Assembly (NCBI RefSeq): GCF_054482525.1
Contig: NZ_CM137006.1
Direction: 5' to 3' (one strand)
DNA: 64,000 nt
This document shows, piece by piece, positions 4,981-26,289 of the stretch. Numbering within the stretch: position 1 is the stretch's first letter; each line of letters starts with the position of its first letter. A model generated the notes under the pieces. It saw nothing but the letters and a program-made list of their open reading frames with translations. It was not told where the DNA came from and did not search any database. The translations under genes were made by a program, and so were the position numbers.

Positions 4981-6246
4981 TTACGGTTTGAAGTCCAATG
5001 GCGCGTTTTTGAACACTTCATATACTGCCTGGCTTGGTGGTTTCGGGATCTTCGCAAGTTTAGCTGCTGCCAACGCAGCCTGACAAAGTGCGGGATCGCC
5101 ACCTTCAGGTTTGATATCCAGTAACATACCATCGGGTGCCAGTTTTATGCGCAGCGTACAGGTTTTGCCTGCATAGGACGATGCGTCATAGAACTTACTT
5201 TCGATAGCAGATTTAATCTGCCCGGCATAGTTATTGATATCGGCCCCTGATGCGCCATTGTTTTTAGTATTACCACTCCCGGCTGGCGAAGCATTGTTCC
5301 CTTTCGCCCCTCCCCCCGTTTTCGGTGCATTCTTACCAGAGCTTAGCTCACCGAAAATATCATCTGCCTCTGCGGCAGCTTTTGCTGCAGCGGCTTTTTC
5401 AGCTGCTGCTTTTGCCGCTGCCGCTTTTTTGTCTGCGGCGGCTTTTTCTGCCGCTGCTTTCTTATCAGCTGCTGCCTTTTCAGCAGCCGCTTTTTCTGCT
5501 GCTTTTTTGTCGGCTGCAGCTTTCTCTGCTGCCGCTTTCTTATCAGCTGCAGCCTTTTCAGCAGCCGCTTTCTTCTCAGCTTCTGCTTTGGCTTTTTCAG
5601 CAGCTTCAGTTGCCGCTTTCTTTCTTGCTTCAGCTGCAGCTGCTTCTGCCGCTTCCGCTTTCTTCTTCAGTGCCGCCGCGGCTGCCTCGGCTTTTTTCTG
5701 CGCTTCGGCTGCGGCTTTGGCGGCTTCTGCTTCTGCTTTTTTCTTCGCGTCTGCAGCCGCTTTCTTCGCAGCTTCTTCCGCAGCTTTAGCATCCGCTTCG
5801 GCCTTCGCTTTAGCATCTGCCGCCGCTTTCGCTGCCGCTTCTTCCGCTTGCTTCTGCTTTAACTCGGCCTGTTTTGCGGCTTCTTCAGCCTGCTTTTTCT
5901 GTTCCTGAGCAGCTAACCGCTCTTTCTCAAGTTGCTTCAGGCGTTCCTGTTCAGCCGCTTGTTTCTCACGCAGTTCTTCAGCGGCCTGCTGTTCCTTCAT
6001 CTTGCGCTGCTCATCAGAACGCTTCGCGCTTGATTCCTGGCTTTGCATGCGTTTGTACTGCTCAACTACCGCACCTGAATCAACCATGACAGCGTCGATG
6101 GATGAACCACCGCCGCCTCCGGCTGAAGCTTCTATATTCTCATCGAACGAACTCCAGATCAGCGCCGCAAATAAGATGACATGCAGCACTGCTGAAATAA
6201 TTATCGCCCGCTTGAGCTTGTCGTTTTGTTCGGTTGCCTTTGACAC
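4981..6246 (-). CDS. tolA: Tol-Pal system protein TolA
   Basis: 421 aa, N-terminal TM segment, long Ala/Lys/Glu-rich helical domain II, C-terminal domain III. Confidence 0.92.
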   Translation of the reverse strand: MSKATEQNDKLKRAIIISAVLHVILFAALIWSSFDENIEASAGGGGGSSIDAVMVDSGAVVEQYKRMQSQESSAKRSDEQRKMKEQQAAEELREKQAAEQERLKQLEKERLAAQEQKKQAEEAAKQAELKQKQAEEAAAKAAADAKAKAEADAKAAEEAAKKAAADAKKKAEAEAAKAAAEAQKKAEAAAAALKKKAEAAEAAAAEARKKAATEAAEKAKAEAEKKAAAEKAAADKKAAAEKAAADKKAAEKAAAEKAAADKKAAAEKAAADKKAAAAKAAAEKAAAAKAAAEADDIFGELSSGKNAPKTGGGAKGNNASPAGSGNTKNNGASGADINNYAGQIKSAIESKFYDASSYAGKTCTLRIKLAPDGMLLDIKPEGGDPALCQAALAAAKLAKIPKPPSQAVYEVFKNAPLDFKP

Positions 6247-6310
6247 TCTCGGTTTCCAAAAACTGTTCGCCTGTTACCCGCTCTCTTTCAAGCAAGGGAA
6301 ACGCAGATGT

Positions 6311-6739
6311 TTAGATAGGCTGCGTCATTAAACCAACCGATTTCACACCCGCACTATGTAACAAGTTCAGTGCTTTAATTATTTCATCGTAAGGCACATC
6401 TTTTGCGCCACCGATCAGAAAGACCGTTTTCGGGTTGGCCTTGAAACGGCTGGACACTTCCGCCACCACCTGCTCTGGTGGTAAACGCTCCAGGCGATCT
6501 TTATCAACCACCACGGTGTACTGACCAATACCAGACACTTCAACAATCACTGGCGGATTATCGTTACTGCTCACCGCCTGTGATTCAGTAGCGTCTGGCA
6601 GATCGACCTCCACGCTCTGGGTGATGATGGGCGCTGTCGCCATAAAGATCAGCAACAGCACCAGCAGTACGTCCAGCAACGGTACAATGTTGATTTCGGA
6701 CTTGAGATCGCGACGACCTCGTCCACGCGCTCTGGCCAT
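6311..6739 (-). CDS. tolR: Tol-Pal system protein TolR
   Basis: 142 aa MARARGRGRRDLKSEINIVPLLDVLLVLLLIF..., ExbD/TolR family. Confidence 0.92.
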   Translation of the reverse strand: MARARGRGRRDLKSEINIVPLLDVLLVLLLIFMATAPIITQSVEVDLPDATESQAVSSNDNPPVIVEVSGIGQYTVVVDKDRLERLPPEQVVAEVSSRFKANPKTVFLIGGAKDVPYDEIIKALNLLHSAGVKSVGLMTQPI

Positions 6740-6742
6740 GGC

Positions 6743-7836
<1,094 letters not shown>

Positions 7837-7932
7837 TTTACATCCCGGTAATGCAACAAAAGTTAGAGCTTTTAAACGCTGCTACTATACGCGCGCGATT
7901 GAGGTTTGGGAATGAGGGCAAGTTAAGGGAGC

Positions 7933-7962
7933 GTAAAAATTTATGGGCCTGGAGCGGCCCAT
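7933..7962 (-). terminator. Terminator-like hairpin (ATGGGCC-loop-GGCCCAT with flanking T/A runs) after ybgE
   Basis: GC stem followed by T-run on the minus strand between ybgE and ybgC. Confidence 0.45.
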
Positions 7963-7985
7963 AATTTTTTAAAGAGAATTCTGAT

Positions 7986-8279
7986 TTAAAAGAAGAAGAA
8001 AATCAGCCCGACAATGAGAACAATATCGGCAAGCAATGGGCAAAAAATCCCTTGCCAAAGAACCTTCTGCGGACGAAAGCCCACGCCGTGAATCACACCA
8101 GCACAGACGGCCCACATCAGCAATAAACCATGCCAGATTTCCAGTTCACTGGTCTTCGCGGCGAAACGTGATGGGTCCCAAAACATACATCCTGCTAACA
8201 GAAGCGCCATCACGAAGGAAAGCGCCCGCAGGGGGCGCTTGTCCATTACCGCATACAAGGTTGCGATAATCTTACTCAT
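7986..8279 (-). CDS. ybgE: Cyd operon small membrane protein YbgE
   Basis: 97 aa hydrophobic ORF MSKIIATLYAVMDKRPLRALSFVMALLLAGCMFW...; synteny after cydX. Confidence 0.85.
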   Translation of the reverse strand: MSKIIATLYAVMDKRPLRALSFVMALLLAGCMFWDPSRFAAKTSELEIWHGLLLMWAVCAGVIHGVGFRPQKVLWQGIFCPLLADIVLIVGLIFFFF

Positions 8280-8392
8280 CAGATGTCTTCTTGACCGGCT
8301 TTGCCTGATTCGACGTGCTCAAGCGCCAGCGCGGTGATTACCCCAAACGAACAGGCAAGAAGCGTTCCCAGAATCCATGCGAAATACCACAT
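8279..8392 (-). CDS. cydX: Cytochrome bd-I accessory subunit CydX (YbgT), 37 aa
   Basis: Reverse translation from ATG at 8390-8392 gives MWYFAWILGTLLACSFGVITALALEHVESGKAGQEDI; stop TGA overlaps ybgE ATG by 1 nt. Too short for the ORF track. Confidence 0.85.
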   Translation of the reverse strand: MWYFAWILGTLLACSFGVITALALEHVESGKAGQEDI

Positions 8393-8406
8393 TTTTAGCT
8401 CCTTAC

Positions 8407-9546
8407 TTAGTACAGAGAGTGGGTGTTACGTTCAATATCTTCTTTGGTGATACGACCGAACATTTTCCAGTAACACCAGGCGGTGTAGAGCAGAATGATC
8501 GGTACCAGAACCACCGCAACCCAGGTCATGACGTTAAGCGTCAGCTGGCTGGATGTTGCATCCCACATTGTCAGACTTGCGTTCATCATGGTGCTGGACG
8601 GCATCACAAACGGGAACATTGCGATACCGGCAGTCAGGATGATGCAGGCCAGCGTCAGGGAGGAGAACACAAACGCCCACGCGGCTTTATCCATACGTGC
8701 AGTCAGGATGGTCAGCAGCGGCAGAACCACACCCAGTGCCGGAATAGCCCACAGAATTGGCGTGTTGTTGAAGTTAACCAGCCATGCGCCAGCTTCACGA
8801 ACCACTTCTTTATTCAGCGGGTTAGAGGCTGCGTAATGGTCCATTGTCGATTTCACGACATAACCATCGATACCGTACATCACCCATACGCCAGCCAGTG
8901 CGAAACAGACCAGTGTCACCAGTGCCGCCACCTGAGCCGTTGCACGGGTACGCAGGTGCAGTTCGCCCACGGTACGCATTTGCAGGTAAGTCGCGCCCTG
9001 AGTAATGATCATCCCTACGCTCACCACGCCAGCCAGCAGGCCGAACGGGTTAAGCAGCTGGAAGAAGTTACCGGTGTAGTACAGACGCAGATATTCATCA
9101 ACGTTGAACGGTACGCCCTGCAACAGGTTACCGAACGCCACACCAATCACCAGCGGCGGAACGAAGCTACCAATGAAGATGCCCCAGTCCCACATGTTAC
9201 GCCAGCGGGTTTCTTCAATCTTGGAGCGGTAGTCAAAACCGACCGGACGGAAGAACAAAGATGCCAGCACGAGGATCATCGCCACATAGAAGCCGGAGAA
9301 CGCAGCGGCATAGACCATCGGCCAGGCAGCAAAGAGTGCGCCGCCCGCGGTGATCAGCCAAACCTGGTTACCGTCCCAGTGTGGTGCAATGGAGTTAATC
9401 ATAATTCGACGCTCGGTGTCGTTACGACCGAGGAAACGGGTGAGCATGCCCACCCCCATGTCGAAACCGTCAGTGACTGCAAAACCAATCAGCAGAACGC
9501 CAACCAGCAGCCACCAGATAAAACGCAATACTTCATAATCGATCAT
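8407..9546 (-). CDS. cydB: Cytochrome bd-I ubiquinol oxidase subunit II
   Basis: 379 aa MIDYEVLRFIWWLLVGVLLIGFAVTDGFDMG... polytopic membrane protein. Confidence 0.93.
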   Translation of the reverse strand: MIDYEVLRFIWWLLVGVLLIGFAVTDGFDMGVGMLTRFLGRNDTERRIMINSIAPHWDGNQVWLITAGGALFAAWPMVYAAAFSGFYVAMILVLASLFFRPVGFDYRSKIEETRWRNMWDWGIFIGSFVPPLVIGVAFGNLLQGVPFNVDEYLRLYYTGNFFQLLNPFGLLAGVVSVGMIITQGATYLQMRTVGELHLRTRATAQVAALVTLVCFALAGVWVMYGIDGYVVKSTMDHYAASNPLNKEVVREAGAWLVNFNNTPILWAIPALGVVLPLLTILTARMDKAAWAFVFSSLTLACIILTAGIAMFPFVMPSSTMMNASLTMWDATSSQLTLNVMTWVAVVLVPIILLYTAWCYWKMFGRITKEDIERNTHSLY

Positions 9547-9561
9547 TTGACGACTCCTGTC

Positions 9562-11130
9562 TTAGCGTGCCGGCTGAGTAGTCGTGGAAGACTGCTCAAA
9601 GTGATAGCGACCGGTTTTCAGGCTGCTTGGGCCGAGGCGTGCAAACTTGAACATTAAGAACAATTCTGCCACCAGGAACAGGGTATACAGGCCGCAAATC
9701 AGCACCATTGAGAAGATGAGATCGCCTGCGGTCAGTGACGAGTTCGCCACAGCTGTCGGCAGCACTTCACCGATAGCCCACGGTTGGCGGCCATATTCAG
9801 CCACGAACCAGCCCGCTTCTACAGCAATCCACGGCAGCGGAATACCGTACAGCGCGGCGCGCAGCAGCCATTTTTTCTCGCCAATGCGGTTGCGGATGAC
9901 ACTCCAGAAAGAGAGCGCGATGATTGCCAGCAGCAGGAAGCCACACGCCACCATGATACGGAACGCGAAGTACAGCGGCGCTACACGCGGAATGGAGTCT
10001 TTGGTTGCCTGTTGAATCTGCGCTTCAGTCGCATCAGCCACGTTTGGCGTATAGCGTTTCAGCAGCAGACCGTAACCGAGGTCTTTCTTCATGCTATTGA
10101 ACTGGTCACGAACCGCCTGGTCGGTAGAACCAGAACGCAGTTGCTCGAGCAGAGAGTACGCCTTCATCCCGTTACGAATGCGTTCTTCATGCTGCACCAT
10201 CAGTTCTTTCAGGCCGATAACTGGAGTATCCACGGAACGCGTTGCAATGATGCCCAGCGCGTAAGGGATCTGGATCGCAAATTTGTTCGTCTCCTCTTCC
10301 TGATCAGGAATGCCGAACAGAGTAAAGGCAGCAGGCGCAGGTTGCGTTTCCCACTCGGCTTCAATAGCAGCCAGTTTGGTTTTCTGCACGTCGCCCATTT
10401 CGTAACCAGATTCATCACCCAGAACAATAACAGACAGAACGGCAGCCATACCGAAGCTGGCAGCGATAGCAAAGGAGCGTTTAGCGAAGGCGAAGTCACG
10501 ACCTTTCAGCATATACCATGCGCTGATACCGAGGATGAACATCGCGCCAGTCACATAACCAGACGCTACAGTGTGAACGAATTTCACCTGAGCAACCGGG
10601 TTAAGCACCAGCTCGGAGAAGCTCACCATCTCCATACGCATAGTTTCAAAGTTGAAATCGGACGCGATTGGGTTTTGCATCCAGCCGTTCGCAACCAGAA
10701 TCCACAGTGCGGACAGGTTTGAACCGAGCGCCACCAGCCAGGTGACACACATATGCTGAACTTTACCCAGACGATCCCAACCGAAGAAGAACAGACCTAC
10801 AAAGGTGGATTCGAGGAAGAAGGCCATCAGACCTTCGATTGCCAGCGGCGCACCGAAGATATCCCCTACATAGTGGGAATAGTAAGACCAGTTAGTCCCG
10901 AACTGGAACTCCATGGTCAGACCGGTTGCCACACCCAGAGCGAAGTTGATACCAAACAACTTGCCCCAGAACTTGGTCATATCTTTATAAATCTGTTTGC
11001 CGGAAAGGACGTAGACCGTTTCCATAATGGCCAGCAGGAACGCCATACCGAGCGTCAGTGGCACAAAAAGGAAGTGGTACATCGCGGTCAAGGCAAACTG
11101 TAAGCGCGACAGTTCGACTATATCTAACAT
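9562..11130 (-). CDS. cydA: Cytochrome bd-I ubiquinol oxidase subunit I
   Basis: 522 aa from [28 protein letters not shown]...; start set at the second Met of the ORF. Confidence 0.93.
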
Positions 11131-11467
11131 CATGACTCCTTGCTCATCGCATGAAGACTCCGAGAGTGAACCCCGTTAGAAAGGGTCACACGCATGCCCC
11201 AATACAAAATTATTTGCTCGCCTCTATCGTTGCCATTTCATCAAAAGAGGAAAAGACAATGATAAAAAAGTTACAAATATGTTAATGAATAAACCAAATT
11301 GATCCCGTAATTATATTACGCCGCAAAATCCTTACAATAAACAGGTTTTTATTGAGCAAATTTGCATTTTTCGACAGTGATCAATTTATAGCGAAATTGT
11401 CACGATCTCACCAATTTGATCTACGACAATTTATCGTGTTTTGCAGATTTTTTTCAAGAATTAAAAA

Positions 11468-11481
11468 TTGATTTATATCAA
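11468..11481. promoter_or_regulatory. FNR consensus box TTGAT-TTAT-ATCAA in the cydA upstream region
   Basis: Perfect match to TTGAT-N4-ATCAA about 340 bp upstream of cydA; cydAB is known to be FNR/ArcA regulated. Confidence 0.5.
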
Positions 11482-11935
11482 AATCAACCAAATATGTTAA
11501 TTATGTATAAACCATAGATTATTGGTAATTTTATTGTTAATTTATTGTGAAATATTTATACAACACAATTATTACAATGAAAAGGTATAGATAAAAAACC
11601 AGTGTTTTATTTAACAGAACCGCCCTATCCACTTTTTATAATACCAATTGATTAGAGTAGCCAATTTGTTGCTATTTTACATAACATATTTTTATCAAAG
11701 TTAATTGATTGTTGCCTTTATGAGCACCGACCGTAAGCCCGTTATGTTATTGTTTCATTAGTAATAATCACTTAAATGTATCGATGAAACAGGTATGACT
11801 TAGCGGGAGTGATTGTTTCTGAGTGAACAGAGACCACTTTCGCCTGATAAATGAAAAATGAGCGATTTTTGCAAGTTAGTTTTTCTATAGCCGAGTACGC
11901 TCAGCGCCTCGCTTGATTACAATGAGGTTGCTGCT

Positions 11936-25624: not shown

Positions 25625-26190
25625 AATGCCGTCCCTTAAAAATAGTTTAAACCATCAAAAATACATTACTTATTACGAAGTAATGGTAACCAAAGCAGCA
25701 ATAAATAATTTATAAGAATCATGATTGACATTTATAACCCAGTAAGCCTGGCGTGACAAATATCTTAATCAGATAATAATAATCCGAAAAGCACAGCGCC
25801 TTTCGAATTATCCGGAATCACATTAAGTGAAAATTATTAAATTGATATCATTTATCATATCTGTGGATATTATGATAAACAATCAACAAAGATTTTATTT
25901 TTGATTTATAGCATATCCCTCTAAGAATTTTTGCGATGCTGCAATATCCGGGGTAAAGACCCGATCCTGGCTGACAAATGGCACGACTTGACGATAAGCG
26001 GTGAACATCGCTTTTGTTGATTTACTTAACGCTACGGTCAAACGCTGGGAAGCCAGTGCATCAGGTAACGATTCGAAATTCGCCGTCGTTCTTATTCGTG
26101 GCTTGCGGTCGGTTGCGGCAATCCACAGTGGCTGTGGTCATGCAGTCAAGCCAGCGGTCAGATTTCGACCGTGGTTAACATTTAAGGCAT

Positions 26191-26289
26191 AAAAAAGGCC
26201 ATCATACGATGGCCAACCATGTCGAAACCGACAGCCCTTCGCCATTCCTGTAGAGGGAAGCGGCGAGGGCTATTTCTTATTACAGATAT
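26191..26289 (-). ncRNA. sdhX: sucD 3'UTR-derived sRNA SdhX (RybD) with intrinsic terminator
   Basis: About 100 nt between sucD stop and hairpin GGCCATCGTATGATGGCC + U6 on the minus strand; position matches the known SdhX locus. Sequence identity not checked. Confidence 0.5.

Follow-up and report, generated by a model that had tools for sequence, protein, structure and literature searches.

Introduction

The cydAB genes of Escherichia coli K-12 are served by five promoters, and an FNR site overlaps the start of one of them, P1. ArcA activates cydAB by relieving repression by H-NS, and FNR represses it partially, as described in two papers (PMC3688515, PMC3798270) that cite Cotter 1997 and Govantes 2000. 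ChIP-seq located three ArcA-bound regions upstream of cydA in K-12, designated cydA1, cydA2, and cydA3 (Park et al. 2013), and the FNR site of cydAB lies at −53.5 of promoter P1, with a ChIP-seq peak (Myers et al. 2013, Table 1). Activation by ArcA through antagonism of H-NS is also known at gadE-mdtEF and appY (PMC3708157, PMC3798270). Two further systems bear on the locus studied here. The first is the glutamate-fermentation cluster of O157:H7, which involves methylaspartate and the mesaconase FumD (Kronen and Berg 2015, PMC4682846). The second is the exchange of intergenic regions upstream of conserved genes, for which the Piggy report (PMC5890482) uses the concept of switched intergenic regions or "horizontal regulatory transfer."

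The DNA analyzed here is a stretch of 64,000 nucleotides, hereafter the window, in which cydA is followed on its 5′ side by DNA that differs from that of K-12. The presence at this locus of a cyd control region subject to FNR and ArcA, next to a variable chromosomal spot, is real and already known. The locus resembles that of K-12 by the same operon, an identical 74-nt leader, an extreme AT content, and three ArcA clusters. The perfect FNR box is 344.5 bp from the ATG here versus 341.5 bp in K-12, and a second FNR-type site is found 52 bp downstream of the first at both loci. The upstream neighbor is an orphan open reading frame (ORF) here and mngB in K-12.

Results and Discussion

Genetic context and conservation of the cydA upstream region

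Genes were assigned from the RefSeq annotation of E. coli PCN033, which is 100% identical to the window. The cydA gene, encoding subunit I of cytochrome bd-I, occupies positions 9562 to 11130 on the minus strand in both the ORF list and the RefSeq annotation, and the cydA, cydB, cydX, and ybgE genes are all annotated on that strand in PCN033. RefSeq places the start codon of cydA at 11128 to 11130, and a second in-frame ATG is present 3 nt 5′ of it, at 11131 to 11133. Positions 11134 to 11935 are the entire 802-bp intergenic gap separating cydA from ORF 11936 (11936 to 12880, plus strand). The GC content is 22 to 30% across 11200 to 11700 and remains low without a break from 11200 to 13900. 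This composition and the annotation of cydA bear out the preliminary description of the gap, made from the sequence alone, as an AT-rich cydA regulatory region; its qualification as "extended" did not hold, since the mngB-cydA gap of K-12 is 846 bp versus 802 bp here. Very probably, positions 11131 to 11771 are native Escherichia DNA that controls the leftward cydABX-ybgE operon (minus strand) of the high-affinity oxidase cytochrome bd-I, with a mode of action similar to that of K-12.

Comparison of seven Escherichia lineages revealed that 84 to 100% of the columns are invariant in 11131 to 11480 and 42 to 66% in 11481 to 11680. The proportion is 82% at 11681 to 11730, where the distal pair of ArcA boxes is located, and 10% past 11781. 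The 5′ leader and ribosome-binding region of cydA (11131 to 11204, minus strand) is identical in the seven lineages and in K-12. Within the fast-evolving distal module, the block TATAGATAAAAAACCAGT (11586 to 11603) is invariant and is kept in part in Citrobacter amalonaticus; blastn matches to positions 11572 to 11615 were obtained with L022, L024, and L034. An Rfam scan of positions 10800 to 14200 with E values up to 1 gave zero matches, and the repeats inside the gap were two-copy short matches only, several of which are the ArcA boxes themselves.

FNR sites and predicted promoters

The perfect FNR box announced in the preliminary description, TTGATTTATATCAA (11468 to 11481), was found at that location and matches the TTGAT-N4-ATCAA palindrome at 10 of 10 positions. 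It is the sole exact match in the 64-kb window, where shuffled sequences lead to an expectation of 0.10. The box can be aligned position by position with its K-12 counterpart TTGATATTTATCAA (cydA sense), and by this alignment it is orthologous to the FNR site located at −53.5 of cydA P1 in K-12. Conservation was evaluated in a sample comprising six genera (Escherichia, Citrobacter, Klebsiella, Raoultella, Salmonella, and Superficieibacter): a 10/10 box was present in 33 of the 34 upstream regions that were long enough, at 341.5 to 347.5 bp from the ATG. The center of the second FNR-type site, TTGATCTACGACAA (11416 to 11429), is 52 bp from that of the perfect box. This site matches at 8 of 10 positions here and at 9 of 10 in K-12, Nissle, and E. 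whittamii, and its weakness relative to the K-12 counterpart counts against full equivalence with K-12. Another FNR-like site, TCGACAGTGATCAA (11371 to 11384; 8/10), belongs to a block that is near-invariant across Escherichia and reaches 9/10 in many Citrobacter.

Homology to K-12 and simple arithmetic (53.5 bp downstream of the center of the FNR box) would place the start of P1 near 11421. The predicted core promoter (11429 to 11457, minus strand) consists of a −35 element, TTGAAA, at 11457 to 11452, a 17-nt spacer, and a −10 element, ATAAAT, at 11434 to 11429; the aligned positions of K-12 read TTGGAA and ATAAAT, and a consensus promoter scan recovered the same −35 element. With the distance of −53.5 reported by Myers et al. 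(2013), the second FNR-type site would be centered at about −1.5 of the predicted P1 start and would overlap it. The best sigma-70-like sequence of the gap, TTGTAA-16-TATAAT (10/12), was found at 11310 to 11337 on the minus strand, directed toward cydA, and lies in the Escherichia-invariant block 11312 to 11355. It is a weakly indicated candidate for a secondary cyd promoter, because promoter-like sites were not in excess over shuffled sequences (5 versus 4.4).

The proposed mode of control is as follows. Under full anaerobiosis, FNR dimers bound to 11468 to 11481 and to the weaker site at 11416 to 11429 would shut P1. Under microaerobiosis, phosphorylated ArcA would bind to three clusters of TGTTA-type direct repeats (11268 to 11285, 11494 to 11551, and 11681 to 11715) and would increase transcription chiefly by displacing H-NS from DNA with a GC content of 22 to 30%. 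For the PCN033 allele, FNR and ArcA occupancy, the P1 start, and H-NS antisilencing are predictions made by analogy with K-12.

ArcA boxes

The ArcA matrix was constructed from 112 boxes (Park et al. 2013, Table S3), the three cydA boxes being left out; the training boxes score 9.8 to 21.4 bits, with a median of 15.8. Six boxes of at least 14 bits (14.0 to 20.6) were detected in 11134 to 11935, each with two or more TGTTA-like repeats at an 11-bp center-to-center spacing. The expectation was 0.19 ± 0.47 such boxes in 500 first-order Markov simulations with the region's own composition, and none of the 500 simulations reached six. The entire 64-kb window contains 10 boxes above this threshold, including the 6 of the gap. 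The preliminary description had mentioned several ArcA-type motifs, with 11496 to 11510 as an example: this motif is contained in the 18-mer ATGTTAATTATGTATAAA (11494 to 11511; 16.2 bits), and the plural is justified by the excess over expectation. Matches to the matrix come easily in DNA with a GC content of 25%, a difficulty that is addressed by the composition-matched control and by the positions of the boxes across genera.

The proximal box, AAGTTACAAATATGTTAA (11268 to 11285, plus strand, antisense to cydA; 20.2 bits), is centered about 146 bp from the ATG and is the sequence orthologue of the K-12 ChIP-seq site cydA3 (AGGTTGCAAACATGTTAA; 14.8 bits). A box in the same orientation was found 143.5 to 149.5 bp upstream in all 35 taxa scanned. 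The middle cluster (11494 to 11551, plus strand) comprises, in addition to the 16.2-bit box, boxes at 11523 to 11540 (17.0 bits) and 11534 to 11551 (20.6 bits), which are in an 11-bp register and form three direct repeats. This cluster is the positional counterpart of cydA2, and blastn homology to other genera and to K-12 fades inside it, at 11481 to 11548. The distal pair consists of a box at 11681 to 11698 on the minus strand (TTGATAAAAATATGTTAT; 17.3 bits) and another at 11698 to 11715 on the plus strand (AAGTTAATTGATTGTTGC; 14.0 bits). In the seven Escherichia lineages, no other part of the distal module is as well conserved. The pair matches cydA1, the strongest ArcA ChIP-seq peak of K-12, by position and orientation, without sequence similarity. 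Of the 32 taxa whose upstream sequence is long enough, 31 possess a box scoring 13 bits or more in the cydA sense 558 to 621 bp upstream, the sole exception being R. terrigena, whose best box scores 12.4 bits.

The three clusters recur in the same orientation in nearly every genus sampled, even where the flanks cannot be aligned, at about 145, 365 to 420, and 555 to 585 bp from the ATG (143, 370 to 420, and 573 to 590 bp in K-12). The preliminary description had allowed for a lack of conservation of its motifs; the FNR and ArcA motifs are kept across the six genera. The maintenance of the distal cluster in place and orientation amid unalignable DNA argues for its function. At about 560 to 620 bp upstream, this cluster is usually left out of promoter-proximal models despite its correspondence with the strongest K-12 peak. 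At gadE-mdtEF and appY, many ArcA direct repeats are likewise distributed over several hundred AT-rich base pairs with no fixed position relative to the promoter, and by this analogy the layout of the boxes upstream of cydA would be the architecture expected for antisilencing.

Junction between native and strain-variable DNA

The DNA common to Escherichia cyd upstream regions ends at the junction 11771|11772, with GTAATAATCAC as its last nucleotides, and strain-variable DNA is found beyond. Homology to the island-free Nissle, E69, E1V33, and E. whittamii stops at 11771 to 11776 according to both blastn and alignments, with 90.8 to 92.5% identity over 11050 to 11771/11776 and the same common end. 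Positions 11520 to 11771 are present in 2,246 of 5,426 E. coli genomes, and positions 11772 to 11935 in only 1,138. Past 11771, the lineages display three unrelated continuations, and in the window the remaining 164 bp of the gap accompany ORF 11936. The last predicted ArcA box (11698 to 11715) is 56 bp short of the junction. Thus, the preliminary description was right in that native cyd DNA abuts strain-variable DNA within the interval, but the junction is at 11771|11772 rather than at 11935/11936.

Alignment to the K-12 cydA upstream region, which had been suggested for placing the junction, leads to a false border at about 11506 to 11555, just past the FNR box. Read at face value, a K-12 homology whose blastn match breaks off at 11506 and which, in the MAFFT alignments, has faded out by about 11555 would mean that native DNA ends at about 11510 to 11555, that 11513 to 11935 belongs to the island, and that the ArcA-like motifs in it arose by chance, as they readily may in AT-rich DNA; other genera also cease to align at 11481 to 11548. 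This reading is most improbable, since 11520 to 11771 is common to about 1,100 island-free E. coli genomes (B2, e.g., Nissle and ATCC 25922) at 81 to 88% identity and is also found in E. whittamii, E1V33, and E69. Moreover, conservation within that very segment is highest at the distal ArcA pair, with its box of at least 13 bits in 31/32 taxa, and the six boxes compare with a composition-matched expectation of 0.19. K-12 is therefore a poor reference at this locus: a junction placed with its help is off by about 250 bp, and the distal ArcA cluster escapes notice. The same caution applies to island borders and binding-site coordinates that are carried over to O157, phylogroup D, and B2 strains.

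On its other side, the variable segment terminates at about 26189, immediately after the SdhX/sucD terminator. The segment has the pattern of alternative cassettes exchanged between two conserved flanks, with the cyd control region on one side and the SdhX terminator on the other. This pattern is suggestive of homologous recombination within the flanks. A classical island junction with a tRNA and an integrase was considered and rejected, since the annotation shows neither a tRNA nor an integrase from cydA to sucD and the two ends of the variable segment share no direct repeat. As a candidate terminal repeat, a 9-bp inverted match (11771 to 11779 and 26178 to 26186) was evaluated; it is not conserved in L031 or L038 and was treated as a chance match.

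ORF 11936 and its relation to the cyd regulators

ORF 11936, divergent from cydA, encodes a 314-residue orphan protein annotated as hypothetical (WP_001366650.1). Its relatives form five clusters among 5.8 billion proteins, each at least 64% identical and found in Escherichia-like genomes only. Searches of ORFs 11936 and 12961 against Pfam, NCBIfam, and PADLOC returned only sub-threshold noise, and the AlphaFold model of ORF 11936, based on a four-sequence alignment, had a mean pLDDT of 43 and was unusable. In L037, a 64%-identical homologue is located beside cydA without the glutamate-fermentation island; homology of this locus to the window reaches 12986 and picks up again at 26189. ORF 11936, which had been taken for the first ORF of the island, is therefore not strictly so, since its homologue adjoins cydA in an island-free lineage. 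Judged from these alignments, positions 11772 to 12986 are a separate module that travels independently of the metabolic island, and the FumD/glutamate-mutase island itself spans about 12987 to about 26188, starting about 1.2 kb past the cyd junction. Like the O157:H7 cluster, the island encodes glmS, glmL, glmE, methylaspartate ammonia-lyase, a class I fumarase, a symporter, and cobO; it is separated from the cyd junction by the orphan-ORF module.

The preliminary description had supposed that ORF 11936 might be influenced by, or insulated from, the cyd regulatory proteins. Positions 11772 to 11935 contain zero ArcA boxes of at least 9 bits and a single 8/10 FNR-like match, so an influence of the cyd regulators, for example, through spreading of H-NS or from the distal cluster located 220 to 255 bp away, has the status of a possibility. 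One form of it is a shared bidirectional control, in which H-NS filaments starting from the AT-rich cyd region would spread over 11936 to 13383 (34 to 44% GC), phosphorylated ArcA bound to the distal pair would relieve this repression on both sides, and ORF 11936 would be coinduced with cydAB at low oxygen. The divergent layout, the proximity of the distal pair to the start of ORF 11936, and the unbroken low GC content from 11200 to 13900 are in line with this proposal, as is the antagonism of H-NS by ArcA at cydAB, appY, and gadE, which involves no fixed position of contact with the polymerase (PMC3708157, PMC3798270). In addition, the search for a strong sigma-70 promoter proper to ORF 11936 was negative. 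We nevertheless regard shared control as unlikely given the dearth of ArcA and FNR motifs in 11772 to 11935 and the existence of a conserved 84-bp block immediately upstream of the ORF. Furthermore, positions 11716 to 11851 are poorly conserved and hold the recombination junction, indicating that the spatial relation between the ArcA pair and ORF 11936 is not maintained.

Within the interval, the poorly conserved spacer 11772 to 11851, which is devoid of ArcA boxes scoring 9 bits or more and of FNR-like matches reaching 8/10, is only about 55% conserved in a three-way alignment versus about 90% for the block 11852 to 11935 (plus strand). The latter is conserved at this level between lineages whose ORF proteins are 64% identical, and it contains a GAGG sequence 8 nt before the ATG; it is likely the proximal control region or the 5′ untranslated region (UTR) of ORF 11936. 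This conservation, together with the movement of 11772 to 12986 as a module apart from the metabolic island and the scarcity of cyd-type motifs, would fit a full insulation of the ORF, with 11852 to 11935 acting as a self-contained promoter and 5′ UTR, perhaps under the control of an alternative sigma factor or activator, and the cyd regulators being idle past 11771. Such insulation is proposed tentatively, and the balance tilts against it, because the block lacks a plus-strand −35/−10 pair, a sigma-54 pattern, and a significant RNA structure. Specifically, the promoter scan of the plus strand ahead of ORF 11936 was negative for sigma-70-like sites, and the predicted RNA fold of 11852 to 11945 was no more stable than that of shuffled sequences (z-score of −0.43). 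Since H-NS spreading needs no specific sites, the lack of motifs cannot imply insulation. A sigma-54 pattern noticed by eye around TTGCA (11870 to 11874) was discarded, as the GG element is missing and there is no GG-N10-GC.

Two alleles of the cyd control region

The core of the control region is about 76% identical between the window and the K-12-type allele, on which all the cited experiments were performed, and the two sequences are unalignable past about 11512. Identity to K-12 is 83.5% over 11050 to 11506, including 81 nt of coding sequence. The mngB-cydA gap as a whole is not alignable, similarity being undetectable in the distal 260 to 430 bp. The drop in identity is abrupt, at about 11205, and cydAB itself is 95 to 100% identical. 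The window allele shares 93.5 to 97.8% identity with that of four other Escherichia lineages. About 59% of sequenced E. coli genomes carry the K-12-type allele with an identity of at least 99%, and the search for a donor among 32 genome loci from six genera provided none closer than 79.5%.

On balance, we lean slightly toward considering the K-12-type control region as an imported, xenologous allele that arrived with mngRAB by recombination, the window allele being ancestral. One breakpoint would then be located only about 75 nt from the start codon of cydA, on its 5′ side, and the ancestral allele would be shared, in diverged forms, with B2 strains, E. whittamii, and the cryptic clades. Horizontal regulatory transfer in E. 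coli was reportedly first described by Oren et al. in 2014. As in switched intergenic regions, a near-identical core gene is preceded here by sharply different upstream alleles with recombination breakpoints; the difference is that the reference strain K-12 is the outlier and that the window carries the genus-wide allele. Titles and abstracts of the literature on mngB/cydA and on methylaspartate in O157 gave no sign that a polymorphism of this control region had been described.

Since the FNR and ArcA architecture is kept in both alleles, rewiring is not evident. The alleles differ in the strength of the boxes, so that phylogroups could differ in how cytochrome bd is tuned under microaerobiosis. 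In view of the importance of cytochrome bd-I in gut colonization and infection, allele-specific regulation of cyd, if true, would be of interest. The proximal and middle ArcA boxes are 5 to 8 bits stronger here than in K-12 and the second FNR site is weaker, the scores of the ArcA boxes being 20.2, 20.6, and 17.3 bits here versus 14.8, 12.3, and 20.0 bits in K-12.

Locus and motif content

A 2.1-kb query around the interval under study matched the chromosome of Escherichia coli PCN033 at 100%. According to the RefSeq annotation of the PCN033 record, tolQ-ybgC-ybgE-cydX-cydB-cydA lies on the minus strand, with the cydA start codon at 11130, and two hypothetical ORFs follow on the plus strand (11936-12880 and 12961-13383). 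Positions 11134-11935 form the entire intergenic gap between cydA and the first of these ORFs. Beyond them, the annotation lists glmS, glmL, glmE, methylaspartate ammonia-lyase, an AtuA-family protein, DUF4387, a symporter, a class I fumarase, and cobO, and the stretch ends with IS200C, a LysR regulator, and sucD. These metabolic genes are those of the O157:H7 "glutamate fermentation / FumD mesaconase" cluster (Kronen & Berg 2015; PMC4682846). Unlike in the window, the sucD-cydA interval of strain K-12 (NC_000913.3) is occupied by mngR-mngA-mngB.

The gap contains the FNR box TTGATTTATATCAA (11468-11481), the sole exact TTGAT-N4-ATCAA in 64 kb (0.10 expected from shuffles). ArcA boxes were scored with a position weight matrix based on 112 boxes from Table S3 of Park et al. 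2013, the three cydA boxes being excluded. Matches were found on the plus strand at 11268-11285 (20.2 bits), 11494-11511 (16.2 bits), 11523-11540 (17.0 bits), 11534-11551 (20.6 bits), and 11698-11715 (14.0 bits) and on the minus strand at 11560-11577 (13.0 bits) and 11681-11698 (17.3 bits). Six of them reached at least 14 bits versus 0.19 ± 0.47 expected, and none of 500 first-order Markov simulations based on the region's own composition contained six. The full 64-kb window holds ten boxes at this threshold, and of the four located outside the gap, two correspond to the known sdhC/gltA sites, included in the training set. The GC content of 11200-11700 is 22 to 30%. The preliminary description had reported a perfect FNR box and several ArcA-type motifs, such as 11496-11510, which lies within the 16.2-bit box, and this was borne out. 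These motifs are genuine, conserved, and beyond what chance would give, and the control region to which they belong, that of cydAB, is well characterised. An additional element, TATAGATAAAAAACCAGT (11586-11603), does not vary among seven Escherichia lineages and is partly kept in Citrobacter amalonaticus within fast-evolving surroundings; it matches neither the FNR nor the ArcA motif.

Equivalence to K-12 sites and conservation

In the alignment with the K-12 mngB-cydA gap, the FNR box of the window lies opposite TTGATATTTATCAA. Myers et al. 2013 class cydAB of K-12 as directly repressed by FNR, with a site assigned to -53.5 and a peak in ChIP-seq; this assignment places the start of promoter P1 near 11421. 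The inferred P1 reads TTGAAA-17-ATAAAT in the cydA sense (TTGGAA-17-ATAAAT in K-12), and a second FNR-type site overlapping its start (11416-11429) matches the palindrome at 8/10 positions in the window and 9/10 in K-12. Upstream of K-12 cydA, ArcA ChIP-seq distinguished three regions with predicted sites (Park et al. 2013). By sequence, these sites precede the ATG by 135-152, 370-421, and 573-590 bp, compared with 138-155, 364-421, and 551-585 bp for the boxes of the window, with the same orientation of the proximal and distal boxes. Published work describes microaerobic activation of cydAB by ArcA, mainly via relief of H-NS repression, and partial anaerobic repression by FNR.

The sites were scanned in 35 cydA upstream regions, 34 and 32 of which extend to the FNR and distal ArcA positions, respectively. 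A perfect FNR box was present 341.5 to 347.5 bp from the ATG in 33 of the 34 regions, the proximal antisense ArcA box at 143.5 to 149.5 bp in all 35, and the middle ArcA boxes at 399 to 415 bp in most. A distal ArcA box of at least 13 bits in the cydA sense was found at 558 to 621 bp in 31 of the 32 regions, the exception being Raoultella terrigena (best score, 12.4 bits). The DNA around this distal box is unalignable between genera, yet its position recurs. Within the distal cluster (ca. 580 to 640 bp upstream of cydA), a GGTGTTAATT-like start is common to Citrobacter, Klebsiella, Salmonella, Raoultella, and Superficieibacter; K-12 carries the variant GGTGAGTTAATT of this motif, and the Escherichia-type allele of the window has another arrangement, CAATTAAC then TTGATAAAAATATGTTAT.

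Across seven Escherichia lineages, the share of invariant positions per 50 bp was 0.84 to 1.0 up to 11480, 0.42 to 0.66 in 11481-11680, and 0.82 at the distal ArcA pair; it fell to 0.42 behind the pair and to 0.10 past 11781. This profile indicates a cyd control region that would reach at least 11715 functionally and 11771 by homology.

Divergence of the K-12 allele

Sliding identity between the window and K-12 was 95 to 100% across cydB and cydA and in the first 74 nt of the leader and dropped abruptly from 11200 (61, 91, 68, 52, and 37% per 100 bp). Comparison with strain Nissle gave 98 to 100% to 11500 and then 72 to 87% to 11770. In the 400-bp core, the window was 93.5 to 97.8% identical to the other five Escherichia lineages, 79 to 86% to Citrobacter, and 75.9% to K-12. 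The closest sampled sequence to the K-12 core reached only 79.5%, and none of 32 loci from six genera qualified as donor. Of the 3,185 E. coli genomes carrying the K-12-type segment, 3,173 share it at 99% identity or more. The K-12-type region (NC_000913.3, ca. 770612-771385; positions 10613-11385 of the K-12 locus L002), compared with 11205-11771, shows ca. 76% identity in the core and is unalignable distally. The simplest reading of these comparisons is that the K-12-type control region was imported along with mngRAB, the donor being an unsampled one, and has recently spread, the window carrying the genus-wide allele. One import breakpoint looks to be located ca. 75 nt upstream of the cydA ATG. 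Switched intergenic regions are a recognised phenomenon (PMC5890482). The finding itself is ordinary, and its only mildly new element is that the K-12 reference allele, rather than that of the window, appears imported.

The junction and the sucD-cydA interval

Island-bearing E. coli (ca. 1,138 genomes, O157:H7 and others) share the whole gap and the ORF with the window. Island-free E. coli (ca. 1,100 genomes, including Nissle, ATCC 25922, and other B2 strains) match 11520-11771 at 81 to 88% and nothing past it, Nissle having only a TPR pseudogene ahead of sucD. In the 3,185 K-12-type genomes, the match stops at 11506. Searching species-representative genomes once with a 20-mer taken from the invariant leader provided 32 loci. 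Alignment to the window ended at 11481-11548 in Citrobacter, Klebsiella, Raoultella, Salmonella arizonae, and Superficieibacter and at 11771-11776 in E. whittamii, Escherichia sp. E1V33, and E. coli E69; in Escherichia sp. MOD1-EC7003, the ORF is also present beyond the cyd control region. The multiple alignment revealed a shared end, ...GTAATAATCAC at 11771; beyond it, the sequences take three unrelated courses. Native control DNA thus abuts variable DNA, as proposed, but the junction lies between 11771 and 11772 rather than at the ORF, and the suggested alignment to K-12, in which homology stops at 11506, would misplace it.

The far end of the variable segment is located at ca. 26189, directly after the SdhX/sucD terminator, in all cassette types. 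K-12 mngRAB, the Nissle TPR pseudogene, the cassette of the Logan SRR11658232 contig 8 (L037), and the island of the window share one end point (ca. 26189-26193), just behind the terminator of the SdhX/sucD 3' untranslated region, AAAAAAGGCCATCATACGATGGCC. No tRNA, integrase, or conserved flanking repeat was found at the segment ends. The sucD-cydA interval thus acts as a hotspot of cassette replacement, with conserved DNA on either side and at least four alternative contents. An inverted match of 9 bp, CTTAAATGT / ACATTTAAG, occurs at 11771-11779 and 26178-26186, a few bases from both ends; it is not kept in MOD1-EC7003 (left end) or E. coli 23CRST031 (right end) and is probably a chance match rather than a terminal repeat. 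In 23CRST031 (NZ_AP045800.1; L038 5001-6800), an IS903B copy takes the place of all DNA between ca. 11853 and a point midway through the LysR gene; the orphan ORFs are lost along with the entire metabolic island, and the cyd control region is intact.

The orphan ORF and the island

Among 5.8 billion proteins, the ORF at 11936 had only five homologue clusters, each with an identity of 64% or more, and it received no assignment in family searches; its AlphaFold model (pLDDT 43) was unusable. It had been described as the first ORF of the island, which is not simply so: a homologue with 64% amino acid identity, also of 314 residues, adjoins cydA divergently in L037, from which the metabolic island is absent. 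Homology between L037 and the window covers window positions 5935-12986 and picks up again at 26189. The ORF and its 164-bp leader thus form a separate layer. The island proper starts near 12987, the orphan module and the metabolic island being separate layers of the sucD-cydA variable spot. Positions 5197-8680 of L037, compared with 11772-12986, contain the homologue, then an unrelated 258-residue ORF, and then sucD.

Within the leader, 11772-11935 contains no ArcA box scoring 9 bits or more, a single 8/10 FNR-like match, no plus-strand promoter-like site, no Rfam match, and no significant fold; 11852-11935 contains no recognisable sigma-70 or sigma-54 promoter and no stable RNA fold. In the three carriers compared, 11852-11935 is ca. 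90% conserved, versus ca. 55% for 11772-11851, across lineages whose ORF proteins share only 64% identity. This difference suggests that the ORF has a proximal control region of its own.

A spacer of 26 to 32% GC upstream of glmS, with which the glutamate fermentation operon begins, contains a strong ArcA-type box, ATGTAAAAATAATGTTGA, on the minus strand (13550-13567; 18.7 bits; ca. 300 bp from glmS). This single match could be due to chance; the predicted box would be consistent with control of the island under anaerobic or microaerobic conditions.
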